64,000 bases of DNA from NCBI GenBank assembly GCA_963842215.1, contig CAWJFQ010000001.1, positions 1,030,156-1,094,155 on the forward strand, read 5' to 3'. The stretch comes from an uncultured delta proteobacterium (GTDB taxonomy: Bacteria > Desulfobacterota > Binatia > Binatales > Binataceae). Below are positions 4,888 through 56,400 of the stretch, piece after piece. Under the pieces are notes generated by a model, which was given only the letters and a program-made list of their open reading frames with translations, ran no database searches and was not told where the DNA came from. Positions within the stretch are counted from its first letter, which is position 1. Each line of letters opens with the position of its first letter. The translations under genes were made by a program, and so were the position numbers.

Positions 4888-7800
4888 TTTAACTTAGCCT
4901 GGCGCGAGCGCGCCGGCGCCGGCCCATGCAAGCCGTCGAAAACGAGCGATCGCCCGTCCGAATGGAACCGCATCGCGGCCAGGACTCCCACCCGTGGCGA
5001 CTCGAGCGCCGCCACGCCATCGATCGTGTCGAGCGTGATTCGCGGCTTCAGCGTCATCAGGGCCGCAACCGCCGCACCGAAACTCTCGTCGTCGACTTCG
5101 CCGTCCCTACCGGTTATCATCGCACGCCCCTGCAATCCCGCGATCACCCGGCCCGCGCGAAGCACCACGACGTTGCCGGTCTCGCGCGCAATTCCGCAGC
5201 CTGGAATCACGGCTCCGTAAGGATTGCCTGGATCGATCGCGCTCAGCGCGACCGGTTTCTCGCGCGCTGGAATAAGATTGCGCGCCGCATGCAGCAGCTC
5301 GACCGCCTCGGGCAGCGCGTACTGCTCGCCGGAAAGCGATCGCACGAACCATCCGCGCCGAATCGCGCCGCCGTATTCCAGCCGCCGCAGCGCAAAGGCG
5401 ATCTCGTTCCACGATATATGCGTCGACTCTGTTCCGAGCATCTCGCGCGCGACAATCCCGTGACGCTCGAGCAACTTGAGCGCCAGCTCCCGCGTCTCAT
5501 CCGAACCGACCGCAGGAATTTCGGCGGCGCGGATCAATGACCAACGGCCCGCCAGGCTCGATTTCAGCCGCGCGCGAACCGCGGCGTCGTGACGGGTCAC
5601 CGGGCGCCTGGCTACAGACTCGAGTGCGCGCTCGGTGCTGCGGTCGTCGGCAAACATCCTGAGCGGCGCGAAGATGTCATTGCTGACGCGTCCCGCCGCC
5701 GCCATCCGCCACAACGCCGACAGTGCGTCGCGCTCCGAGATATTCGCGCGCTCCGCGACTTCATCGAGATACTGCGCGCCGGCGGCTCCCAGAGCCTCCA
5801 GCACCGCGCGCTCCTTCGCATCCGCGATCTCCGCTGGTTCGCGCGGCACGAACAGGCTGGCCTTGCGCGCAATGAAGGTGACCCGCGACGGGGTGTTCGC
5901 AGGGCGCGCGCCTTCGATATTCTCGCCCGGCACGGCGACCCATTTCATCTGGCCGCTCATGCAAACCAGGTCGAGCATCTCCGGCCGATAGCCTGCGATT
6001 CGCGCCGGCAGGATCGCATGCTCCCAAACCTCGGGCGTGGCCGCGATTCCCGACAGCTGCTCGAGCACGGCCGCGACTCCCGTTTGATCAGCCGACAGCT
6101 CGCCGTCGCCGATATGCATCCATCGCAGCCGGAACGCCGCATATTCATGATCCGCGCATGGCTCGATTTCCGCGCGCACGCGCGCCAGCGTCATCCGATG
6201 TATCCGTTCGAGACTGTAGCGGTCGCACCACTGCGTCACGTCAGCGCGCGTGAAATGACCGCGAAAAACCGCGCCCTGGCTCTCGAGCGCTGCGAGAGCC
6301 TGTTCGACGACCGAGTCGCTCATATGCAGTCGCGCGGTAACCTCACCGACAGTGGTGGGGCCGCAGGTCTTCAGCGCTCGGCGTACGAGCTCCGTGCGTG
6401 CGGCTTCCGCCTCGGCGCCCGCACCACTCGAATAGGCAGCCGCAAACAGCGCCTGGTCTTCGCTCGCAATGATTCGTTCCTGCGGATCGCCGTTCAAACT
6501 TATCCGCGCGGTTCTTGCTTCCGCGTCGAGCTCAGTCAGCATCGTGCGCGCACTCTCGCCCGAGCGCTCTTCGATCTCGGCGTAGGTCAGGCAGCCATGC
6601 GCACGAATCAATTCATACAGCTCGTCAGGCGAACGCGGTCTGCGTCCGGCGGCGCGGCCCGTCACCTCGGCGACGACGCTCTCGACTGCCTCCGCCGACA
6701 GCAGATCCGAAAGATCCTCTTTGCGGAACACGTCCTCGGCCATTCCGCGATTCATCGTGACTGTCCGCGAGCGGCGATTGGCGCGCTCGCCGTCGTCGAG
6801 GAATGAATAGTCCCACGCGAGCAACAGCCGATGGGCAAACACCGACGGCGCGATCCCGTCGACGGCGACCGTGCGAATCGCGCCGCTCTCGATTCCTTCG
6901 AGCATCCGCACCGTGCGCGGCAGGTCGGTCGATTCCTCGAGGCATTCGCGAATCGTTTCTTCGATCACAAAATGGTCGGGAAGCTCGATCGCGCCCGGCC
7001 GATTCTCGAAGCACGCCTGCTGCCCTGGAAAAATCGATGACAGCAGTTCCTGCGAGCGCATGCGCTGAATCCACGCCGGCACCTTCTTGCCGCGCGACGA
7101 GCGCATCACCGCCAGCGCGCGCGTCGCCACGTGGCGGAAGCGCACTTCGAACATCGGCGCGGCCAGCACCGCCTGGATCAATACGTCGCGCGCGTTGCGC
7201 GACTTGAGCATGCTGAAGAGAGTGTCGAGCGGAAAACTGTGGCGCGAATTGAGAGCCAGGAGCACGCCGTCGTCGATGGCCGAGGCCTGAATTTCAAAAT
7301 CGAACGATTGGCACAGGCGCTTTCGAAGCGCGAGACCGAGTCCGCGATTGAGGCGGATTCCGAACGGAGTGTGGATGACGATTTGCGTGCCGCCCAGGCC
7401 GTCGAAGAAGCGCTCGACCACGACAGTCTTCTCATCGGGAATCGCGCCGAGCGCCTCGACCCCGCGCCGCACGTAGTCGGCGGCCTGCGTCGCCGCGCGC
7501 TGCGTCATGGCGCATTCGCTCATCAGCCAGTCCTCAGCCGACTCGTTGCGTTCAAGCCGACTCCAGACCTGGTGGCGAAGATCGCTAATCTCTGCCGACA
7601 TGGCAGACGAGCGGCCGCCGGCCTCCGTCAGCCAGAACGGCAGCGTCGGCGCCATCCCCGGCGCCGGCTCGACCATCAGGCGCCCGCGCGAGCTGCGCAG
7701 AATCTGCCACGGCATCGAGCCGAGCGAGAACACGTCGCCACGCGACGACTCCTGCGCAAAGTCCTCTTCGACGTCGCCGATTTTTCGGCCCTCGGATTCG

Positions 7801-36893: not shown

Positions 36894-37781
36894 TCATCGC
36901 GCGGCATCAAGGCCGCAGGGAGCCGCAGCGTGAGCTCGAATCCAGTTGCGATCGCGCCGCCCGACTTCACGCAGTATCGCAAGGCCGTCGTCTGTTTTGC
37001 CCAGGCCGAGCAATGCGATTGCGTGCCAGTAGCGCATCTCGGGATTGTCACCGATTGACCGCTCAGCGACGGCAAACTCACGTTCAGTCGCATCCAAATC
37101 GCCGCGTGCGGCCGCCTCATTACCAAGCCGCATATGAAAGAATGCGCGGCGAACGTTGACCAGCCGCCGCATCTCGACCAGCGGCTCAGGCGCGTCATCG
37201 ACGCGAAGATCGAAGATGGCGTCATGCCACGGCCGCCCGTGCTCTTCGCCGCAACAATCAGAATCGCCGCCGATTGCCGCCCGCGAATGTCGCCGCCTTC
37301 GACCTCCGCCGCATCAAGCGCCGCAACAAACCGATCAACCATCTCGACCCCTCGTGCCGGCATACGCCTCTGCCATCGCCCGCCAGACCGTATTCTTGAG
37401 CATCATGTTTGCCTGCACCGAAAATCCCTCGCCGACGATATGTCCCGCTTCGGGAATAGTCGTCGAGCCGGTGTGAGCTCCGACCCGGCCGAGCGCATCG
37501 ACCATCGCAACCTGCCGAACCTCCTTCATCGGATCCGCGGCGAGCAGGCCGGCGAGCGCGTCAGGCGCGCTCTTCCTGGCGCGCATCAAGTCGAGTCCGA
37601 GCTTGCCGTACGCGGGATCGGCGGTCGCCTGCGACGCGACCGCGCCGACTCCCGCCTCCGCCCACGTGACGACCGAGCCGGCCGAGAAATAATGCGACTG
37701 CACAGCGGCGCCTAGCTGCCCGGTGTCGGAGTCGCGCGCGACTATCGAGTAAGTGTGAACCAGCGGATCGGCAGCCGGCAT
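36894..37781 (-). pseudogene. DUF1028 (Ntn-hydrolase-like) family gene split over three reading frames by two frameshifts
   Basis: GGAGGA ribosome-binding site plus ATG at 37781. The N-terminal part (MPAADPLVHTYSIVARDSDTGQLGAAVQSHYF…) ends at a GGGG run near 37348. The middle part (GVEMVDRFVAALDAAEVEGGDIRGRQSAAILIV) is in a second frame. The C-terminal part (…WHDAIFDLRVDDAPEPLVEMRRLVNV…) is in a third frame, with the shift near 37245. Confidence 0.6.
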
Positions 37782-37934
37782 TATTTCGTGTCCTCCTCTA
37801 TCTTCTTGCGCCACCTTATCATCACGTCATCGCGTCTTTGTGTCATCCCGAGCGTAGCCGAGGGACCCCGAATTTTTCTCGACGCCGAGATACCCCACAC
37901 TCCTTGGGGCTTGCGAAGCCCCGTTGCTCCTGTT

Positions 37935-38100
37935 GATGGATTTGCGGGCGCTCATCCTATCGCCATCGGGCGTAAAAATTGGAGCTTCGCGGGATCAGAC
38001 ACCTTCGACCAACGGACTGTCACCATCAACGTCGTCATCGCGACCGCCAAGCTCAACGGGCTTGAGCCCTGGAAATATCTGCGCGATGTTATCCGGCGAA
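37935..38100 (+). mobile_element. IS66-family transposase C-terminal remnant
   Basis: The translation HPIAIGRKNWSFAGSDTFDQRTVTINVVIATAKLNGLEPWKYLRDVIRRM matches the conserved RKNWLFAGS…ETAKLNGL(D/E)P…YL.DVL.R tail of IS66 TnpC. Only about 55 codons remain. No upstream transposase body, accessory genes or inverted repeats are present. Confidence 0.6.
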
Positions 38101-38900
38101 TGAGTCATCCCGGCGCAGCTTTGAACTTCACGGAGATAGAAGCACGCCTCGGCGGTCGTCTGGGTATCGCCGCCCTTGATACGGGTAGCGGCAAACAGTT
38201 GTCATATCGCGGGGACGAACGATTCGCGATGTGTTCAACTTTCAAACCGCTACTGGTGGCTAACGTACTGAAGCATGTTGAGCAAGGGTGGCTGTCTCTG
38301 GATCAGCGCGTTCCGTATGCTACCACCGATCTGATTGAGCACTCTCCCTGCACGCTGAATCGCCTTGCCGAAGGAAGCATGCCGATTGACGATCTCTGCG
38401 GCGCTACCATAGAAATTAGCGACAACACAGCGGCGAATCTCCTCTTGAGTTTAATTGGCGGACCTCCGGGCCTAACCGATTATCTGCGTGGGTTGGGCGA
38501 TTCTATAACCCGGCTCGACCGGACCGAATTGAGCCTCAATAGCAACATTCGGGGAGATGATCGGGATACGACAACGCCCGATACAATGATCAGAACCATG
38601 AGCAAGATCCTTCTCGGCGATGCCTTGTCGCCGGGTGCGCGCACCAAGCTCGTAAACTGGATGAAGAATTGCAAGACGGGATTTAGTCGCGTTCGCGCCG
38701 GGCTGCCACAGGATTGGATCGTAGGCGATAAAACTGGAACCGGCAGCAACGGAGCTGCCAACGATATCGCGATCCTTTGGCCTCCCGGACGTGCACCAAT
38801 CATGGTCGCGGCCTATCTGAGCGAATCCACCAAGTCAGCCGAAGAACTCAACGCAGCACACGCGAAAGTTGGCAGCGTCGTCGTTGCGTTTTTTTCTTGA
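38100..38900 (+). CDS. class A beta-lactamase domain lacking a signal peptide (5'-truncated, fused in frame to the IS66 remnant)
   Basis: All class A catalytic elements are present: S70-x-x-K (CSTFKP), S130-D-N (ISDNTAAN), R164-x-E166-x-x-x-N170 (RLDRTELSLN), K234-T-G (GDKTGTG). The first in-frame ATG (38100) gives MSHPGAALNF… This aligns with the mature N-terminus of TEM-type enzymes (HPETLVK…), so there is no leader. Confidence 0.7.
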   Translation: MSHPGAALNFTEIEARLGGRLGIAALDTGSGKQLSYRGDERFAMCSTFKPLLVANVLKHVEQGWLSLDQRVPYATTDLIEHSPCTLNRLAEGSMPIDDLCGATIEISDNTAANLLLSLIGGPPGLTDYLRGLGDSITRLDRTELSLNSNIRGDDRDTTTPDTMIRTMSKILLGDALSPGARTKLVNWMKNCKTGFSRVRAGLPQDWIVGDKTGTGSNGAANDIAILWPPGRAPIMVAAYLSESTKSAEELNAAHAKVGSVVVAFFS

Positions 38901-39112
38901 TCGGCCCAAGAAATTATCCACCGCGGGCTGTATCCATGATTCTCGACAGAAGCAAGGGCGACCGCTACCGGACGATTACGCTGATCCGACGTTTCACCTC
39001 GCTCACGCCGTGTTTAGGGTTACGTCAACCGACATCGAGAAAGACGCGGGGTCCCTCGGCTCCGCTCGGGATGACACCAAAAAGCGCGGCACAAAGTTGG
39101 GATGAAACAAAA

Positions 39113-46094: not shown

Positions 46095-47708
46095 TCACAC
46101 GATTATAAAATTCGCGATCATCGCCGCGTCTTCATGCGGCAATATGTGACAATGGTAGACCGACTTGCCCTTCCAGGTCTTGAAGCGCGTGCGCATCTTG
46201 AGCTCGGAAAATGGCGCGAGCCATATCGTATCGTGCAGCCGGTGATAGTCCGGATTTCCCGGCATCCCCAACACCTCGAATGAGTTGACGTGAATATGAA
46301 AGGGGTGAATACCATCCGAGTTGTTCGCGAGCGTCCATTCCTCCGCCGTACCGAGCCGGACTGTATTATCTATTCGCGTCTCCGAATACAGTTGACCGCC
46401 AATCAGAAACTCGACTCCAGTAAGTATCGACTTGACTCCATTTTTCATCGTGAATACTACTTTGCGCCGAGCTACTATCTCATCGTCGCGAATGAGTGGA
46501 TACTCACGCGTCGGCGTCGGCAGCTTGTCGGGAATACTCATATTTGCCGGTGCGCCTGAGACGATGAAATTCGCAAGCGCGATTTCCGGCGACGACATCA
46601 TCTCTCCCATTGCCTCGCTCAACAGGTTCGGCGACATTGGCATCTGTGGCAGCGCAATCAACATACCAGTCGTGGCTTTCTGCGGTGCGCGAATCAGCAC
46701 CTCGTTGCGATTTCCGGGCGCCATCCGCATAGCAGTTTTGAGGTCCTCGCCCACTCTCTCAGGCCGCAGAAGATTGATTCCGTCCTGCCCGATTACGTAC
46801 ATCTCGAAACCCGGAAGTACTATTGGCATTGGAATGCCATCGGTGCCATTGAGTATTCGTAATCGCAGCACTTCACCCGGCCGCATCTGGTAATTAGGTA
46901 ATGATTGTTTCGTAGCTAGTGGCTTCTTGCCGCGACGATCGATTACGAGCACCGGCTGCCCGTTCGCCGTGATTAACTCCATCTGAGTAGTGAAGTAGTA
47001 GCCACCCTCGTCGGCCGGCTTGTACGCAATTGGCTCCCATCCCCAGAGATCTTTTCCGTTGGCGAGCGGATTAACCTTGATGTTTTGAATAGCCAGTAGC
47101 TCGTCGCGAGCCGCCGCGATTTCCGGCACTTCGTCGATCGCTCCCTTCACCAGTATCAACCCAGCCATCCCGCCGCCGACCTGCACTGTCGCGGAGCCGT
47201 GATGGTGCGGATGGTACCAATACAAACCGGCCGGATGATCGTCTGGCAGTTGGAAGTCATAGGTGAGGCTCTGCTCCGCTCCGATCGCAATCATGCGCGA
47301 TGCGGGATCCGACGTACCGACCGGCGCGAACAGATGCGGGATCACCTGCAAGCCGTGGACGTGGAGGCTGGTGGTGTTGAAGTGATTCGGATTGTTCTCG
47401 CCATCGATTCCAGCGGGCGCGACTGCCGGCGGATCGGGCGGCAGGCTGTTCGCGAGCGTGACGCGCAAGATGTGTCCCGGCCGCGTAACCATCAGCGGCC
47501 CCGGAAGACTCGCGTTGTAGGTGCGCGTGCGCAACCGGAGACCGGCGAGCTCACGCTCGGAATATCCAACTCGCAACGTGTACGCATCGACGGATGCGGA
47601 TTGCGCCGCCTGAACCGGCTCTGGAAATAACCCGAGCATCGCGGCGCCCGCGATAGTTCCGCCTGCGGCGAGAAACTGTCGGCGTGTAAGTCGCAGCTGA
47701 TGTCCCAT
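46095..47708 (-). CDS. Tat-exported multicopper oxidase
   Basis: Twin-arginine signal MGHQLRLTRRQFLAAGGTIAGAAML. Copper-site motifs HVHG…, WYHPHHHG, HPFHIHVNSFEV, HCHILPHEDAAM. Confidence 0.8.
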   Translation of the reverse strand: MGHQLRLTRRQFLAAGGTIAGAAMLGLFPEPVQAAQSASVDAYTLRVGYSERELAGLRLRTRTYNASLPGPLMVTRPGHILRVTLANSLPPDPPAVAPAGIDGENNPNHFNTTSLHVHGLQVIPHLFAPVGTSDPASRMIAIGAEQSLTYDFQLPDDHPAGLYWYHPHHHGSATVQVGGGMAGLILVKGAIDEVPEIAAARDELLAIQNIKVNPLANGKDLWGWEPIAYKPADEGGYYFTTQMELITANGQPVLVIDRRGKKPLATKQSLPNYQMRPGEVLRLRILNGTDGIPMPIVLPGFEMYVIGQDGINLLRPERVGEDLKTAMRMAPGNRNEVLIRAPQKATTGMLIALPQMPMSPNLLSEAMGEMMSSPEIALANFIVSGAPANMSIPDKLPTPTREYPLIRDDEIVARRKVVFTMKNGVKSILTGVEFLIGGQLYSETRIDNTVRLGTAEEWTLANNSDGIHPFHIHVNSFEVLGMPGNPDYHRLHDTIWLAPFSELKMRTRFKTWKGKSVYHCHILPHEDAAMIANFIIV

Positions 47709-47777
47709 GTTCCCTTCCCCGAATGAAGCGCCAGCCAACTCGAAAAAGAATGCGGATTCAATTATCAAAAACTTTCG

Positions 47778-47785
47778 TTTGACGT
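47778..47785. repeat. target-site duplication (left copy), TTTGACGT
   Basis: Identical 8-mer abutting both inverted repeats (second copy at 50157-50164). An 8-bp duplication is typical of the IS1595 family. Confidence 0.7.
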
Positions 47786-47809
47786 GGGGATTATGTTGAT
47801 GTTGACTCC
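47786..47809. repeat. left terminal inverted repeat of the IS1595-family unit
   Basis: Seen directly in the sequence. Its reverse complement matches 50133-50156 at 22 of 24 positions. Confidence 0.75.
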
Positions 47810-47886
47810 CAACGTCAAGGTAGGCGAAAGTGAGCGATGAAATACGATGCTCGCGAGACTATTTGCAAGACTACTTTGGGGAGCCA

Positions 47887-48129
47887 ATGGAACTGATTCT
47901 CACGTATCGGGGGCCGCTGCCTTCAGGGCAAGGTAAAAACAAGAAAGCGCGTGGTAAGCGGAACGTACGAAGCTCACAATGCGCGAACAGTTTCATGCGC
48001 AGTTGCGCCACCACTGGAGTTCGGTTGAGCCGCTTCGCAAGTGGTATAGGAATGGAGCTTTTGAATTCAATCAAATTAAGCCAGAACAGTTTCCGTCTTC
48101 ATGGTCGGCAATTCGCGTTCCACAAGTAA
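47887..48129 (+). CDS. small ORF upstream of and overlapping the RusA-like gene (possible frameshifted N-terminal part, or separate passenger)
   Basis: GGGGAG ribosome-binding site, then MELILTYRGPLPSGQGKNKKARGKRNV… This resembles the N-terminal strand of RusA-type resolvases. It overlaps the next ORF in another frame. Confidence 0.2.
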   Translation: MELILTYRGPLPSGQGKNKKARGKRNVRSSQCANSFMRSCATTGVRLSRFASGIGMELLNSIKLSQNSFRLHGRQFAFHK

Positions 48130-48497
48130 AGGTTCTTTTCGCGCCGTTGGTTATTACTGGTCTATATCTGAAATTGGTCTGCGAACTCGACATTGAAATT
48201 CTCTCGCGCGACGAACCAGGATCGATTGTCAATTCCGGCGATCTCGACAATCGATTAAAAGTTCTGATCGACGCTCTTCGGATGCCGCTGGCAAATGAAA
48301 ACTGCATCTATGCTCCGCCAACAGATTACGTCTGCTTTTGTTTGCTGGAAGACGACAAACTGATAACGAGATTTCAGGCTAAGACGAGTCGTTTGCTCCG
48401 TCCAATTTTCGGCGGCGAAAATCCCGAAGACGTTGAAGTTACGATCAAGGTGGCAATACGGGCAAGCGATCTTAGTGTTTGGCCGTTAAAAGCCTAG
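47979..48497 (+). CDS. RusA-like Holliday-junction resolvase family protein (passenger gene)
   Basis: 172 aa. GDLDNRLKVLIDAL plus a downstream EDDKLI acidic motif and FGGENPEDVEVTIKV C-terminal strand match the RusA DxDN…K…DAL…D catalytic signature. The N-terminus is uncertain. Confidence 0.45.
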   Translation: MREQFHAQLRHHWSSVEPLRKWYRNGAFEFNQIKPEQFPSSWSAIRVPQVKVLFAPLVITGLYLKLVCELDIEILSRDEPGSIVNSGDLDNRLKVLIDALRMPLANENCIYAPPTDYVCFCLLEDDKLITRFQAKTSRLLRPIFGGENPEDVEVTIKVAIRASDLSVWPLKA

Positions 48498-48530
48498 CCG
48501 CTTAGGAAGCCAAATTAGTATGCTGCGCGG

Positions 48531-48953
48531 ATGGACAAATCGAATGCCGACATCCTCACACAGTCTCGGGCTCGCTTGCGGATCGTCATGGGCGAAAAAG
48601 CGCGTATATGGGCGCAGGTTCAGGAACTCAAAACCGAATTCGATACAAAATATAAAGCGTTGGATTGGGAAGCTGTTGTCCATCCGAGACGCGAGTCTGC
48701 CGAGGGGATACTTCAAGTCATGAAGTCAATTAGTCGATTGCTCGTGATAGGAAACAAAACTGAGGGTGTTCTGATTCATAAATTCAAAGCATCAGATTCA
48801 AGTCTGCCATCGGTTGCGAGAACGCTGAAAGTTGCGGAACGGACGCTACTGGATATGGAACGGCTTCGCGCGTCGATAGCGCAAGCGATCTATGACATCG
48901 ATTTCCATCGCGCAAAGGCGCGGGGAAAGAAACCGAAAAACGGTCGCGGTTAA
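48531..48953 (+). CDS. hypothetical passenger protein
   Basis: 140 aa with codon usage unlike the host genes. No recognisable family. Confidence 0.35.
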   Translation: MDKSNADILTQSRARLRIVMGEKARIWAQVQELKTEFDTKYKALDWEAVVHPRRESAEGILQVMKSISRLLVIGNKTEGVLIHKFKASDSSLPSVARTLKVAERTLLDMERLRASIAQAIYDIDFHRAKARGKKPKNGRG

Positions 48954-48959
48954 CTCTGG

Positions 48960-49134
48960 AGTGCTCGCTTCAACTGCGCTGCGAGCTTGGCGACTTCGAC
49001 ATCGAGCCAGAAGGCTTTTGCTTTTTCGAGGGCGAGAGAATGGGCTTCAGCATGTTTTTTAATTTCTCGATATCGACGTGTCGGAGTTTTTCGCGCAACT
49101 CTTCGTCTTCTTGTTTCGTTTGTTCGCTGACCAT
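48960..49134 (-). CDS. small coiled-coil passenger protein (apparent frameshift at an A-run)
   Basis: MVSEQTKQEDEELREKLRHVDIEKL… in one frame. The coiled-coil tail …KKHAEAHSLALEKAKAFWLDVEVAKLAAQLKRALQS continues in another frame, with the junction at the AAAAAA run near 49045-49050. Confidence 0.25.
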
Positions 49135-49172
49135 CCCGTGATGTTAGCACGGGTTTTGCGAAGCGACCAACG

Positions 49173-50105
49173 CTACACAGTTTGAAGTAGTTTCGTAAAC
49201 ATTTCAGGATCGTTGCGCCCGTTGAATCGGAATGCAAATTCATTGACGTACAGCGGCAGATACTCGCGCGTGACGTGATGAAACGATCCCATGATGCCGC
49301 GCTTCAACAATGACCAGAACGATTCGATCGTCTGTGTGTGAACGGAGCCGGTCACGTACTGGTGTGCGCTGTGGTTGACAGTTTTGTGAACGAAACCATG
49401 GCCGCGCAGATGGCGATAGCCTTTGTGCTCATCGGTCACGACCAGCTTGGCTCTGGTCGAAACCGCTTCCGAGACAAAATCCGCTATCGTGGTAAATCCC
49501 ATTTCGTCAACGGCTTTAGCGATGACGCTGCCCTTGCGCGAGATCGCGCCGATGACTGTCAATTTGCCTGAACCCTGTGGTCCTGAACTCTGACTCTTCT
49601 TGTCCCAATGTTTGTTTTTGTCTTTGCCGCCGATGTACGTTTCGTCAACTTCGACAATGCCCTCAAGCTGATCGATTCCGCCACGCATCGCGCATCGAAG
49701 CCGCATGCACATAAACCAGCTTGTGCGATAGTCGGAGCCAGAGTCTTCGCCGAACACTGTGCGATGAATCTGAAGCGCGCTGATTCCCTTTTTTGCGGTC
49801 AGCATCAAGTAGGCAACGCGAAACCAAATATCGAGCGGAATTTTCGTATCCTGAAAGATCGTTTTCGTGATGACGCTGAATCGATAGCCGCCGTTCTTGG
49901 CGCACGTAACGGGTTTGCCATCGGCATCGGTCGTGACCTTGCCGCTCTTGCAGACCCAATGAAACGGGCGCGCCTTGAGCGTGATAACGCGCTTATTCCC
50001 GCATCGCGGACAGACCGGACCGTCAGGCCAACGGCACTCGGCTAGCAGCTTCTTACACGCGTCTTCGTTGGGAAAGTCAGCCTCAAAGGCTTTCAGCGTT
50101 TTCAT
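49173..50105 (-). CDS. IS1595-family transposase (N-terminal zinc-ribbon plus DDE domain)
   Basis: 310 aa. Zinc-binding CPRCGNKRV…C…C, then a DDE_Tnp_IS1595-type core (EVDETYIGGKDKNKHW … VTDEHKGY … ESFWSLLKRGIMGSFHHVTREYLPLYVNEF). Confidence 0.8.
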   Translation of the reverse strand: MKTLKAFEADFPNEDACKKLLAECRWPDGPVCPRCGNKRVITLKARPFHWVCKSGKVTTDADGKPVTCAKNGGYRFSVITKTIFQDTKIPLDIWFRVAYLMLTAKKGISALQIHRTVFGEDSGSDYRTSWFMCMRLRCAMRGGIDQLEGIVEVDETYIGGKDKNKHWDKKSQSSGPQGSGKLTVIGAISRKGSVIAKAVDEMGFTTIADFVSEAVSTRAKLVVTDEHKGYRHLRGHGFVHKTVNHSAHQYVTGSVHTQTIESFWSLLKRGIMGSFHHVTREYLPLYVNEFAFRFNGRNDPEMFTKLLQTV

Positions 50106-50132
50106 GATATGGATATTACACTTTTAGGGAAT

Positions 50133-50156
50133 TGGAGTCAACAGGAACATAATCCC
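50133..50156. repeat. right terminal inverted repeat of the IS1595-family unit
   Basis: See the left inverted repeat. Confidence 0.75.
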
Positions 50157-50194
50157 CTTTGACGTGAGGCGAAAAAAGAGCGAAAACATACATT

Positions 50195-51079
50195 GTGGCT
50201 GCTCTCCCCAAACCTTCGTGGTTCAACCCTTCAAACCCGATTCGGACTGTTAGACCGGCCACGGTTAGCCCGGTTAAAAAGCCACAAATACTTGAATTTT
50301 CAGGAGTTTTTCGTGGTCACGAACTCACTCGCAAGGATCGCCGCCTAAGCTCCGGCCTTGCCTCGATCGACACACTTATTGACGGCGGAATTCCGCGTGG
50401 GCGAATAAGCGAAATCACTGGACGAGCCGGTTCGGGCAAGACTTCGATTGCCGCATCATTCGCCGCCTTCGCTACCCGCCGCGGCGAGGTCGCCGCATGG
50501 CTCGACGCCTCAGGCGCTTTCGATCCTGAGAGCATGGCGGCCGCGGGCGTAGAGCTGCGCCGGATGTTGTGGGCGTCGATGACGACGGCGTCGCGGATTG
50601 CGCGCGCGTCTACCTACGCCCGCTTCGCAACCGGCCCGTGCACGCATAAACAATCGGCGATTGTCAAAGCTGCGGAACTCGTGCTCGAGGCGGGGGGCTT
50701 CGGCCTGGTCGTCGTCGATTTCGGTGAGGCGCCGCGCGCACTCGCGCACGCATCTGCCCTGCGAATTGCACGCGCGGCCGAGCGCAGCGGCACAGCCGTG
50801 ATCGCGATCGCACCGTGGCGGATGTGCGGGACGTTCGCGGCGCTTAGCCTGACTGCGAGCCGCGCCGAAATGTCGTTCAGCCGGCTCGCTCCTGGCTCAC
50901 CGGTAATGTTCGACGGACTCGCGGTGGATGCGATGGTCGCGCGAAACAAGATGGGCGGGACCGGGCGGCGTGTTCGCGTTCGCGCGCTGGTCGATCCAAT
51001 TCCAAATCCATTCGACTTGCATCCGCATCCCGACTGCGCGGGCAAGGAATCGCCGGTTCGAATTTCCGCAAGCAGCTAG
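50195..51079 (+). CDS. imuA: ImuA (RecA/SulA-like protein of the imuA-imuB-dnaE2 mutagenesis cassette)
   Basis: SSGLASIDTLIDGGIPRGRISEITGRAGSGKTSIA (degenerate RecA-fold P-loop). Positioned directly before imuB. Confidence 0.7.
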   Translation: MAALPKPSWFNPSNPIRTVRPATVSPVKKPQILEFSGVFRGHELTRKDRRLSSGLASIDTLIDGGIPRGRISEITGRAGSGKTSIAASFAAFATRRGEVAAWLDASGAFDPESMAAAGVELRRMLWASMTTASRIARASTYARFATGPCTHKQSAIVKAAELVLEAGGFGLVVVDFGEAPRALAHASALRIARAAERSGTAVIAIAPWRMCGTFAALSLTASRAEMSFSRLAPGSPVMFDGLAVDAMVARNKMGGTGRRVRVRALVDPIPNPFDLHPHPDCAGKESPVRISASS

Positions 51080-52825: not shown

Positions 52826-52863
52826 CAAAGAAATATGAGTATTGACGTTTGTATAGGCATTTG

Positions 52864-52877
52864 CCTACGCTAATTGA
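52864..52877. promoter_or_regulatory. candidate BrnA operator palindrome
   Basis: Perfect palindrome TAGGCA-TT-TGCCTA 16 bp upstream of the brnT start. A TTGACA hexamer lies at 52833-52838. Confidence 0.3.
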
Positions 52878-52892
52878 GTTAAATGAAGAAAG

Positions 52893-53204
52893 TCCCCTTT
52901 TCAGGATTTGCGTGGGACAACGACTAACTATTCGAAGTGTCAGAAACACGGCGTCTCGATCGCCGAAGTGGAGCATGTTCTTGCTCATGCGGCGACCCTG
53001 ATTGTGCCCGACCTGAAGAATTCGCGCGCGGAGTCGCGTTTCCTGGCGATCGGGCGAACGCAAGAAGGACGATACGCCTTCGTCGTTTTCACGCCGCGGC
53101 AAACTCGCGGTGGGATACTCTTGCGTCCCATAGGCGCCCGCTACATGCACCGGAAGGAGATTAGAAAATATGAACAAGAAATTGCCCGCGTTCAAAAACG
53201 ATAA
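52893..53204 (+). pseudogene. brnT: BrnT-family ribonuclease toxin with a 1-nt frameshift after codon 14
   Basis: MKKVPFSGFAWDND then a TAA stop in frame. The rest of BrnT (NYSKCQKHGVSIAEVEHVL…RFLAIGRTQEGRYAFVVFTPRQ…LRPIGARYMHRKEIRKYEQ) continues in the +1 frame. Confidence 0.65.
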
Positions 53205-53463
53205 GGAAGCTGAAAACTTCCTTGATCAGGATCTGTCCGACTACATCAGCGCCGAAAACTTCGCACCGTTTCAGTTCGAGTTCAGGCCAAAGCAAAAGTC
53301 GGTCAATCTTCGAATCTCCGAAGAACTCCTGAACGCGGTCCGTGCCGTCGCGCATCGCCGAGGCATCCCTTACCAGCGTTTCATTCGCCAAACCCTCGAG
53401 TCCGCGCTGGCGCCAAAAGAGCCTGGCTTTAGAAAGAAATCCGCGCGCCGCTCGGGCAAATGA
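53170..53463 (+). CDS. brnA: BrnA-like antitoxin (CopG/RHH family)
   Basis: 97 aa overlapping the toxin 3' end by 35 nt. C-terminal RHH-type region SVNLRISEELLNAVRAVAHRRGIPYQRFIRQTLESAL. Confidence 0.65.
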   Translation: MNKKLPAFKNDKEAENFLDQDLSDYISAENFAPFQFEFRPKQKSVNLRISEELLNAVRAVAHRRGIPYQRFIRQTLESALAPKEPGFRKKSARRSGK

Positions 53464-53477
53464 TCTGATCGATAGGC

Positions 53478-56400
53478 GTGATGTCCGTTTCTAGCGTCGC
53501 ATCGCCCATGAACTCCGACTACATCGAACTTCGCGCGCGCAGCGCGTTCAGCTTTCTCGAAGGCGCGACCACGCCCGAGGACCTCGCCGCACGCGCGGCG
53601 GAATTCGAATACAGCGCGATGGCGCTTGGCGATCGCGACGGAGTTTACGGCGCGCCGCGCTTTTACCTGGCTGCCAAGGCCGCGGGTATCCGGCAAATCG
53701 TCGGCGCTGAACTGACGCTGGACGACAACTCGCGCCTCTACGTTCTCGTCCCGGATCGCAAGTGTTACCGGAATCTCTGCCGCATGATCACCGACTCGAA
53801 AATGCGCGTCCTCAATACCGGCGCGCTCGCACGCGACGGCTCTGCCGCTGCACCCGTCTATCCGGCCAAGGGCGAGAGCCGCATTACGCTGGAGCAGCTT
53901 GAACTCTATGGCCACGGACTCATCTGCCTGGCCGGCGGCGTGATGAGCCCGCTATCGCGTATGCTCGTGCGCGGCGACGATCCGCGCGAAATGAGCCGGC
54001 GGCTCGGCGGGATTTTCGGCGCGGCAAATCTATACATTGATCTGCAGCGTCATCTCGACGCCGGCGAGGAACGCCTCAACCGCAAGCTCGGCGCACTGGC
54101 TAGTGCGATGCGAATCCCGATTGTCGCGAGCAACGACGTATGCCACGGCGGCTCGGATCGCAAATTGCTCGACGTGCTGACCTGCATTCGGCTCAAGACC
54201 ACGCTCGAAGAAGCCGGCCGTGCATTGTGGATCAACAGCCAGCGTCATCTTAAATCGCCAGCCGAGATGACCGCACTGTTTCGCGATATGCCCGGCGCTG
54301 TCGCCGCGTCGCGCGCGATTGCCGAGCGATGCGCTTTCCAGCTCTGCGACATGGGCTATCGGTTTCCTGACTATCCGATTCCACCGGGAGAAACGCCCGA
54401 CAGCTATTTGCGCATGCTCACTTACGCAGGTGCGAGAGACCGATGGCGCGGCGCAATCGACGATCGCACACGCCATCAGCTCGAACACGAGCTCGGAATC
54501 ATCGAGCGGCTCAAGCTCGCCGGCTACTTCCTCATCGTGTGGGACATCGTCCAGTTCTGCCGTGAGAATCGAATCATGGTGCAAGGACGCGGCTCCGCGG
54601 CTAACAGCGCAGTATGTTACGCGCTCGGAATCACCGCGGTGGACGCCGTCAAAATGGAGCTTCTGTTCGAGCGCTTTCTTTCCGAGGAGCGCGGCGAATG
54701 GCCCGACATCGATCTCGACCTGCCCAGCGGTGACGATCGCGAGCAGGCGATTCAATACGTCTATCGGCGCTACGGCGAACGCGGCGCCGCGATGACCGCG
54801 AACGTGATCACATATCGCACCAGGAGCGCGGTGCGTGAAGTCGGCAAGACCCTCGGCTTCTCGCCCGAACAGGTCGATCGGCTCGCCAAGCTCAACCAGG
54901 TGTACGAGTTTCGCGACCAGCACGACGATCTGGTGGCGCTACTCAAGCGCGGCGGTGTCGACGCGGAAGCGCCGCGCATCATGATGCTCGTCGACCTCGT
55001 GCGCAGGATTCAGAGTTTGCCGCGCCATCTCGGACAGCATAGCGGCGGCATGGTTATCGCCGCGCAGCCGCTCGATGAGATCGTCCCGCTCGAGCCCGCC
55101 TCAATGCCTGGCCGCGTGGTAATCCAATGGGACAAGGACGACTGTGCTGATCTCGGCCTCATCAAGATTGATCTGCTCGGACTTGGGATGCTGGCCGCGC
55201 TGAAAGAAGCACTTCCGATGATTCATGCGCACGAAGGCGTCGAGCTCGATCTCGCGCATCTTCCGCAAGACGATCCCGACGTGTACGCGATGCTTCGGCG
55301 CGCGGATACCGTCGGCGTTTTTCGATCGAGAGCCGCGCGCAGATGGCGACACTTCCGCGGATGAAGCCCGAACGATTTTACGACCTGGTGGTCGAGGTCG
55401 CTATAATTCGACCCGGTCCCATCGTCGGAAAAATGGTCCATCCTTATCTCGATCGCCGCAACCATCGCGCGCCCATCGAGTATCCGCATCCTTCGCTCGA
55501 GCCAATTCTCAAACGCACGCTCGGCGTTCCGCTCTTTCAGGAACAGTTGCTCCGCATGGCAATGACGGTCGCGGGATTCAGCGGCGGCGAGGCTGAGGAG
55601 CTGCGCCGCGCGATGGGATTCAAACGTTCCGCCGAGCGGATGGAAAAAATCGAAGCGCGACTGCGCGCCGGCATGTTGCGCAACGGCCTCCAGGGCAGTC
55701 TCGCCGACGACATCGTGCGTTCGATCACTTCCTTTGCGCTGTATGGCTTCCCCGAATCGCACGCCGCCAGCTTTGCCCTGATCGCGTATGCGTCGGCGTA
55801 CTTGAAGTATCATCATCCCGCCGCGTTCCTGGCCGCGATGCTGAATTGCTACCCGCTCGGCTTTTATCATCCTTCGACGCTGGTGAAAGACGCCGCCCGT
55901 CACGGCGTCACCGTCATGCCCGCCGACGTGACCCGCTCGAACTGGAAATGCACCCTTGAGATTGTCGATCGAAGGCCCGCGGTGCGCATGGGACTGCGAT
56001 ACGTCACCGGCTTGCGCGAGGAAGTCGGACTTCGAATCGAAAGCGAGCGTGCGCGGCGGCAGTTCGATTCGATCGCCGATTTTACCGCGCGCGTCGGACC
56101 CAATCGCCGCGAAATAGACGCCCTCGCCTACGCCGGCGCGTTCGCCGCTTTCGGCCTGGCGCGGCGTGACGCCATGTGGAATGCCGCCGCCGTCGAGCGC
56201 GATCCCACCAGCCTGCTCGCCGGCGCCAAGCCGCGCGACGGCGAGGTCCCCCTCGCATCGATGTCGCCGATCGATGAAACGCTGGCCGACTACGCCGCGA
56301 CCGGCCTTACCACCGGCCCTCATCTGATGACTTACCTCCGCGCCGATTTGACCGCGCGCGGAATTCTCAGTGCCGACCAGCTCACGCGCGGCAAACATCA

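Follow-up and report, generated by a model that had tools for sequence, protein, structure and literature searches.

A probable IS1595-family transporter insertion sequence, with apparently exchangeable cargo, at an imuA promoter in Candidatus Binatus

In the ISNwi1 subgroup of the IS1595 family, insertion sequences (ISs) have inverted repeats with the tip ggnnatTAT, a transposase with a DDE(K) motif, and a length of 1.75-4.75 kb with passengers. Here we describe an element of 2372 bp at positions 47786-50157 of a stretch of 64,000 nucleotides (the window) of contig CAWJFQ010000001.1, assembly GCA_963842215.1, from an uncultured bacterium of the Binataceae. Set against these features, its inverted repeats start with GGGGATTATG, its transposase contains E261...K268, and its length is 2372 bp. 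It resembles the ISNwi1-group transporter ISs in its N-terminal Zn-ribbon and DDE_Tnp_IS1595 domain and in its 8-bp duplication, as well as in having short inverted repeats that start GGnnATTAT, a size in the range of about 2-3.6 kb, and non-transposition genes inside the repeats. Tn3-family transposons with toxin-antitoxin passengers likewise carry addiction or conflict genes beside a transposition module, as does one sibling of our element (L012, with a SocA_Panacea antitoxin and a membrane protein); in contrast to them, the element has a transposase of another family and no resolvase or res site, and the cargo in the window matches no toxin-antitoxin or defence model. We give a probability of roughly 0.9 to the reading that 47786-50157 is one copy of an IS1595-family transporter IS with two passengers, with the mechanism, cargo and targeting proposed below. 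According to a passage in PMC3129680 that cites Siguier et al. 2009, the transporter IS concept was introduced for IS1595; the element appears to be a new member of this known class, and its transposase sequence appears to be new.

The element is bounded by two terminal inverted repeats of 24 nt each, which are complementary at 22 of 24 positions. The left repeat (IRL, GGGGATTATGTTGATGTTGACTCC; 47786-47809, plus strand) lies on the cargo side and is the same in sibling elements, and the right repeat (IRR; 50134-50157, minus strand) lies on the transposase side. Both abut TTTGACGT directly, so that the element stands between a left copy (47778-47785) and a right copy (50158-50165) of a perfect 8-bp direct repeat; terminal inverted repeats with an 8-bp duplication are what is expected of the IS1595 family. 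A first-pass annotation of the window had proposed these repeats and the lower-GC block of 2.37 kb between them. Both were verified, and the GC (guanine plus cytosine) content of the 2372 bp is 50.6% (0.506), compared with 60.8% (0.608) for the whole window and 60.5% and 61.8% for the 5-kb flanks. The two mismatches between the repeats fall at positions 13-14, and because the left and right ends differ there in all siblings, they are a feature of the family and not decay.

The origin of the octamer repeat became clear from two related Candidatus Binatus contigs, L045 and L046, which lack the entire 2372 bp and in which the empty-site octamer is one TTTGAC(G/A)T. In L045 (GCA_936406215.1), whose flanks are 87.6-90% identical to those of the window, TTTGACGT occurs once without an insert; the site reads ...atcaaaaactttcaTTTGACGTgaggcgaaaaaagagcg... 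(in a longer stretch, ...atcaaaaactttcaTTTGACGTgaggcgaaaaaagagcgaaaacatatctcATG), and the gene order is that of the window, namely a flavin adenine dinucleotide (FAD)-binding gene, a multicopper oxidase gene, imuA, imuB and dnaE2. L046, the closest relative found (flanks 93.8-95% identical), is also empty and has a single TTTGACAT. The blastn blocks against the empty contigs end at window position 47786 and restart at 50158, with an overlap of 9 bp in L045. Since both empty sites hold a single octamer, the 8-bp repeat is a target-site duplication and the insertion is the derived state, and because both contigs lack all of it, the whole 2372 bp is the inserted mobile unit, as the annotation had claimed; the comparison with empty sites in related genomes, which it had named as a check, thus came out in its favour. 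The emptiness of L046 (~94-95% nucleotide identity) also supports its view that the insertion is recent, which makes it younger than the split from L046. The same insertion is present in a contig from another sample, L001, which is 99.78% identical to the window over 12.3 kb and terminates 5 bp into IRR. Exact-protein look-ups of the window transposase and of the imuB product gave no record. By its imuA homologs, the window belongs to Candidatus Binatus/Binataceae.

Alternatively, the repeats might have arisen by chance, or a transposase unit of about 1 kb might lie beside two ordinary chromosomal open reading frames (ORFs), ORF1 and ORF2, which we read as the passengers. This would fit the finding that ORF1 homologs stand without a transposase in 17 of 20 further loci, and that locus L019 has an ORF2 homolog close to imuA and to the same FAD-binding gene. 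The alternative is already refuted, however, by L045 and L046, which lack the passengers along with the transposase unit and keep one octamer. Moreover, the ORF2 homolog of L019 is part of a sibling element that has its IRL directly against the same octamer, and ORF1 homologs are held within inverted repeats at unrelated sites in the sibling L002 and in a Mesorhizobium element. In 60 dinucleotide-preserving shuffles of the window, no inverted-repeat pair spaced 0.5-5 kb apart had at least 22/24 matches, whether or not a direct repeat was present, which argues against chance repeats. We therefore regard this explanation as improbable in the extreme.

The multicopper oxidase gene next to the insertion (46095-47708) has a GC content of ~53-55%, below the window mean, and is polymorphic among close Binatus relatives: it is found in the window, L001 and L045, and is absent from L046 and L019, where the FAD-binding gene adjoins the imuA promoter directly.

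The transposase (310 aa; 49173-50105, minus strand) was identified by Pfam and NCBIfam profile matches and is intact, as the annotation had it. It matches Pfam DDE_Tnp_IS1595 (PF12762; 2e-40, profile positions 1-153 of 153), the N-terminal Zn_ribbon_IS1595 (PF12760; 2.4e-11) and NCBIfam transpos_IS1595 (NF033547; 2.1e-55, 187.9 bits, the cutoff being 75), the domain pair that characterizes the family. In an alignment of 13 sequences that includes distant relatives (12 distinct ones, the window's having been entered twice), C32, C35, D154, D225 and E261 are invariant. The nearest metagenomic sibling transposase is 90.6% identical, and no plasmid-borne relative reaches 60% identity, the top ones among the matches listed being at 32-37%. 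By analogy with known DDE transposases, the enzyme would bind the inverted repeats and attach the element's ends to target DNA cleaved with an 8-bp stagger, giving rise to the duplication. A promoter-like site for the transposase, TTGACT-17-TAATAT (50113-50141, minus strand), has its -35 part inside IRR and ends 7 nt ahead of the ATG. A further promoter-like site, TTGACG-17-CATAAT (47790-47818, minus strand; 10/12 consensus positions), points outward from IRL towards the multicopper oxidase gene, but siblings do not conserve its -35 part; at IRR, an outward-facing CATAAT lies 4 bp from the tip and lacks a good -35. Both outward-facing sites are matches to the consensus only. An Rfam scan of 47000-51000 gave a single chance microRNA match below threshold.

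Sibling elements were collected by scanning genome and metagenome collections for the inverted-repeat pattern; the flanks lay outside the search pattern and so give an unbiased sample of insertion sites. This gave nine complete elements, including that of the window, and several partial ones. The transposase is 80-91% identical to the window's in eight of the nine, and only 51% identical in L029; that of L002 is internally broken. The GC content of the complete elements is 51-53% each. All eight siblings have 8-bp duplications of their own, six of them perfect and those of L002 and L029 matching at 7/8 positions, so that the recurrence of the unit with different duplications, another check named by the annotation, was found as well. 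Their cargo varies widely. L002 (2641 bp, duplication A/TCTTGACA) carries an ORF1 homolog, 76% identical, together with the transposase within the same inverted repeats at a site other than the window's. The cargo is a 228-aa protein of no assigned family in L010 (2229 bp, AACCAAAG) and a 283-aa one in L029 (2536 bp, T/CCTTGACA). L012 (2872 bp, AACTTTAT) encodes SocA_Panacea (8e-24), a membrane protein and a HARE-HTH-like protein, and L024 (2366 bp, CTTTGGTT) an MtlR/HEPN-like protein (3e-8). DUF3800 is accompanied by two small ORFs in L023 (3085 bp, ACTTGACA) and by a 199-aa protein in L041 (2667 bp, GCTTGACA), and L034 (3568 bp, AACTAAGG) carries a gene for 432 aa with an RNALSH motif, one of the RxxxxH motifs in sibling cargo (another being RNELMH in L019). 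An element of 1974 bp in Mesorhizobium opportunistum, with 36-nt inverted repeats starting (A)GGATTAT, has an ORF1 homolog, a small ORF and a transposase arranged as in the window.

Taken together, the siblings point to a backbone of inverted repeats, transposase and a 54-aa ORF, with a cargo slot between IRL and this ORF that is exchangeable among siblings. A role of the cargo in defence or addiction is unproven; it would fit the SocA_Panacea, HEPN-like and DUF3800 proteins of the siblings. Sibling ISs that swap cargo at a fixed slot make a compact natural vehicle for conflict-type genes. A sibling-type element at a radical S-adenosylmethionine (radical-SAM) gene promoter, L007/L031 (3372-5270), contains genes for a 356-aa Beta_protein (PF14350, 1.8e-48) and a 245-aa ORF; a second sequence resembling the inverted repeat, at 5282 in direct orientation, may mark tandem or nested elements.

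The first-pass annotation had counted three or four passengers. ORF1 and ORF2 were borne out, and the small coiled-coil ORF was not. This 54-aa ORF (MVSEQTKQEDEELREKLRHVDIEKLK...; 48970-49134, minus strand) lies downstream of the transposase gene in all siblings, whatever their cargo, and hence belongs to the backbone rather than to the passengers. The N-terminal part of its product, MVSEQT.(K/E)EDERLREELRHVDLEKLK, is kept in every sibling element, and in the N-terminal half substitutions at codon positions 1/2/3 number 77/20/135. The Mesorhizobium relative has a 60-aa ORF in a similar position. Scans of the 54-aa product against Pfam, NCBIfam, PHROGs and PADLOC returned nothing usable. An A AAA AAC heptamer within the ORF (49051-49057, minus strand) was considered as a site of programmed -1 frameshifting, since a -1 shift leads into an overlapping 97-aa frame that encodes an amphipathic helix (…EKAKAFWLDVEVAKLAAQLKRAL) similar in L002, L027, L039 and L019. 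This candidate was rejected: stop codons interrupt the frame in siblings, conservation of the heptamer is lacking, and the counts by codon position are unfavourable.

Of the two passengers, ORF2 (140 aa; 48531-48953, plus strand) is nearly an orphan. It matched no family in Pfam, NCBIfam, PHROGs or PADLOC and no other cluster among 5.8e9 non-redundant sequences; among 1.8e9 representatives, it had, apart from itself, two clear relatives and a further two marginal matches. An AlphaFold2 (AF2) model predicts three long helices with moderate confidence (predicted local distance difference test, pLDDT, 71). The fold search, which had been suggested for this protein, gave no significant match, and neither homology nor fold pointed to a function. 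In L019, an ORF2 homolog (50% identical) follows a gene for a 286-aa protein with the RNELMH motif. Upstream of ORF2, the window and L019 share 45 bp at 93% identity, a stretch whose first bases are those of the first cargo gene's stop codon, so that ORF1 and the HEPN-like gene of L019 are alternative occupants of one slot.

ORF1 (47887-48497, plus strand; 203 aa when intact) had been annotated as a RusA-like passenger. The RusA fold was borne out; in this assembly, however, a 1-nt deletion at 47964 splits the gene into two frames (residues 1-26 at 47887-47964 and residues 28-203 at 47967-48494). In the L001 copy (99.8% identical), 47964 is followed by one more G, and the gene product is an intact protein of 203 aa, P0001; L001 itself has single-base deletions in its transposase and housekeeping genes. 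A frameshift is also present in dnaE2 of the window at ~55320, where tblastn with the L046 DnaE2 runs in frame 3 up to 55325 and in frame 2 from 55319; dnaE2 is intact (1056 aa) in L045 and L046, and the split points either to indel errors in the assembly of the window or to a true pseudogene. Given the indels of L001 and the dnaE2 frameshift, an assembly error is as likely as true decay of ORF1.

ORF1 belongs to a family of 426 homologs of ~200 aa, none of which has a Pfam domain. In an alignment of 99 homologs, Y7, G9, Q39, P87, D119, D121, N122, R123, K125, D129, P134 and D157 are invariant, and E155 and D156 are conserved in at least 90%. A pairing by hhalign sets GDLDNRLKVLIDALR of ORF1 against RRDLDNLQKAAFDALT of RusA (residues 68-83), a stretch that we take to contain the catalytic residues D70, D72 and K76 in the E. 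coli numbering, D91 being catalytic as well; ORF1 probably has an equivalent of D91. Thus, ORF1 shows both the fold and the catalytic acidic residues and lysine of RusA. Compared with RusA of the E. coli DLP12 prophage (PDB 1Q8R, PF05866), a dimeric enzyme that resolves Holliday junctions and with which it shares 14% identity, ORF1 is longer (203 aa vs 120 aa), with residues 19-46 forming a long additional helix and with an insert of low confidence near residues 55-80. RusA is part of a phage recombination module, whereas ORF1 is carried by an IS and its nuclease activity is putative. We infer that ORF1 encodes a Mg-dependent endonuclease for branched DNA carried as accessory cargo, with a role in conflict or addiction or as a recombination helper. 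In the window, the slot holds this stand-alone RusA-fold protein, with the RusA catalytic signature, and the small helical protein of ORF2. The family of more than 400 uncharacterized proteins is hereby identified as RusA-fold with an intact catalytic signature, and it travels on ISs, plasmids and prophage-like contigs.

Several observations weigh against this view of ORF1. Its match to Pfam RusA (PF05866; 15.0 bits, E 0.04, a stretch of 17 residues) fails the gathering threshold of 22.8, and the hhalign comparison with E. coli RusA covers only 16 columns at 12.7% probability; ORF1 is therefore classed by the RusA fold and catalytic signature and not as a member of PF05866. Being frameshifted in the window assembly, the cargo may be non-functional here. 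In 20 further loci, ORF1 homologs have no conserved partner gene; the sole recurrent neighbour is an IS1595 transposase, in only 3 of the 20. PADLOC matched none of the five ORFs to a defence system, so that neither a curated model nor a conserved partner marks ORF1 as a defence or toxin-antitoxin gene. The scans of ORF1 against Pfam, NCBIfam, PHROGs and PADLOC gave nothing beyond the sub-threshold RusA match, a profile of its family found chance matches only among PDB sequences, and ORF1 had no match in phage genomes.

ORF1 could also be an accessory of transposition, a Holliday-junction resolvase needed for transposition or for gap-repair intermediates, given its RusA fold and catalytic motif and its pairing with the transposase, which recurs in Binatus and Mesorhizobium and at two IMG/VR loci. 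On the other hand, siblings with 85-90% identical transposases and identical inverted repeats carry unrelated cargo and show perfect duplications at new sites. Furthermore, the majority of ORF1 homologs stand alone on plasmids, prophage-like contigs or islands; copies were seen on a Nitrosococcus plasmid together with restriction and HNH genes, next to an integrase, and on contigs of IMG/VR. We consider the accessory role very unlikely. Because the siblings with closely similar transposases lack it, ORF1 is probably accessory cargo and not a transposition factor.

We then compared the insertion sites of the lineage. At four distinct loci the duplication includes TTGAC, and at three of these, two or three different siblings have inserted. 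At the imuA promoter, the window and L001 have the transposase end towards imuA, and L019 has the cargo end there, at the same 8 bp (junction CCCC|GTTGACAT|GAGGCGAAAAAAGAGCG). At the promoter of a PPOX-like (PNPOx-like) 153-aa gene, L002 is inserted in one orientation and L023 and the decayed L003 in the other, again at the same 8 bp, with flanks 85-90% identical. Both orientations thus occur at the imuA and PPOX-like sites. The radical-SAM gene promoter is occupied by L041 and L007/L031, which are different element types, and L029 is inserted at a TTGACA-N15-TATAAT promoter. The imuA, PPOX-like and radical-SAM promoters share TTGACA-N3/4-GCGAA-N6-GCGAA directly upstream of the start codon, and this motif is also present in the empty imuA sites.

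The L019 copy (806-2470) is a decayed sibling that has lost the transposase gene, the other inverted repeat and ~20 bp of host sequence, the deletion extending to a point 14 bp from where the FAD-binding gene stops; in its small ORF, ATA replaces the start codon and there is an in-frame stop.

The nucleotide identity of imuA to the window is 0.936 in L046, 0.879 in L045 and 0.845 in L019. Since L046 and L045 are closer to the window than L019 and yet empty, the insertions in the window and L019 must be independent strikes on the same octamer, in opposite orientation and with different cargo. Shared occupancy could instead reflect one old inherited insertion, followed by inversion in place and exchange of cargo, without any targeting. 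The occupied sites are indeed orthologous within each set, L010 and L034 are in the same orientation at an orthologous site with different cargo, and decayed copies exist (L003 and L019). Such a history, however, requires two precise excisions to account for the empty L046 and L045, as well as inversions at two sites for which 24-bp inverted repeats are poor substrates. It is also at odds with the same motif having been struck at three non-orthologous promoters, in addition to a fourth TTGACA...TATAAT promoter, and on balance we consider it unlikely.

Two points stand against target choice by the lineage: independent insertion events are few, and some siblings lie off TTGAC, either beside the GTTTCACGTGAAAC palindrome or at unrelated sequences. 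The palindrome forms a second recurrent context, with insertions 0-15 bp from AACGTTTCACGTGAAACGTT in L010, L034, L012 and L026; the loci are orthologous for L010 and L034 and non-orthologous for L012, and both orientations occur. In view of this context and of the unrelated sites, the preference for TTGAC appears not to be absolute.

Hot spots would also arise by selection, if only those insertions survive that duplicate the -35 hexamer and leave a working promoter. In every case the duplication regenerates TTGAC(G/A) beside the gene, and the neighbouring genes are intact. Selection alone, however, leaves unexplained the repeated use of identical 8 bp and the choice of three promoters with a motif of ~25 bp over promoters generally. 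We see selection as the sole cause as a possible but doubtful explanation, and it can coexist with targeting.

The nature of the shared motif is suggested by the genes behind it. imuA, imuB and dnaE2 are described as part of the core LexA regulon (PMC3381160). The radical-SAM gene matches the NCBIfam models Rv2578c (1e-75) and PA0069 (2e-73), in both cases below the equivalog cutoffs. Rv2578c has a LexA peak in chromatin immunoprecipitation sequencing of M. tuberculosis (PMC3381160), and PA0069 is named among 15 SOS genes of P. aeruginosa in a passage of bioRxiv 10.1101/2022.03.14.484287 that cites Cirz 2006. From these links, the motif may be read as a DNA-damage (SOS-type) promoter or operator in Binatus, which would provide a candidate SOS-type operator for an uncultured phylum.

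We infer that the IS lineage selects its targets by sequence, with a preferred YTTGAC(A/G) in a shared, probably SOS-type promoter. The full proposal is that the lineage homes with single-nucleotide precision on the -35 of TTGACA-N3-GCGAA-N6-GCGAA promoters (imuA-imuB-dnaE2, radical-SAM and PPOX-like, suggestive of an SOS/DNA-damage regulon), that its duplication rebuilds the hexamer, and that it carries a swappable conflict cassette of one to three genes (RusA-like, HEPN-like, DUF3800 or Panacea). We hold this combined proposal tentatively, at somewhat short of even odds. To our knowledge, a target preference for a -35 hexamer or promoter motif has not been described for the IS1595 family. 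Recurrent insertion at the same nucleotides of a repeated motif is familiar from IS1397 and ISKpn1 in REP (repetitive extragenic palindromic) sequences, IS30 hot spots and Tn7 at attTn7; in contrast to these, the motif here would be a promoter before DNA-damage-type genes, is entered in both orientations and is accompanied by a second target type. If true, this type of target choice would be new to the IS1595 family, with a promoter repaired through the element's own duplication.

At the imuA site of the window, the consequences for the host promoter can be followed in detail. The annotation had placed the insertion inside the promoter of the mutagenesis cassette, and it does lie 29 bp upstream of the start of imuA (RecA-like; 50195-51079, plus strand), the first gene of imuA-imuB-dnaE2, which is outside the element. 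The core promoter, by contrast, would not be destroyed. The target is the promoter/operator motif TTGACG-N4-GCGAA-N6-GCGAA (50159-50194, plus strand), which ends at the imuA start codon and is conserved in L045, L046 and L019. TTTGACGT overlaps its -35-like hexamer, and since the octamer is duplicated, the copy adjoining imuA retains the hexamer and everything downstream. The imuA side accordingly keeps TTGACG, both GCGAA repeats and the start codon, and the sequence upstream is replaced by IRR. By landing on an octamer over the -35-like hexamer, the element would thus preserve the core imuA promoter in the duplicate copy, only the upstream sequence being exchanged. The motif of ~30 bp beyond IRR, which is common to L002, was also considered as part of the element and was rejected, since other copies have it next to IRL and empty sites contain it too. 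The element is an ordinary but well-preserved example of its class and, with its site known in both the occupied and the empty state, a clean case that should be useful for annotating Binatus genomes.

Two further features of the window lie outside the element. The sole other inverted-repeat pair of comparable quality in the real window is a 57-nt repeat, 84% complementary (37831-37887 and 39030-39086), which is unrelated to the element and brackets ~1.2 kb with a beta-lactamase-like ORF (37755-38900); this unit may be a cassette bounded by a REP-like repeat. Between imuB and dnaE2, a low-GC insert (52827-53497) that is absent in L045 contains a 98-aa ORF (52908-53204) overlapping a 97-aa CopG-like ORF (53170-53463). 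Together they resemble a BrnT/BrnA-type toxin-antitoxin module within the mutagenesis cassette, and L046 has a CopG_antitoxin gene at the same place between imuB and dnaE2.

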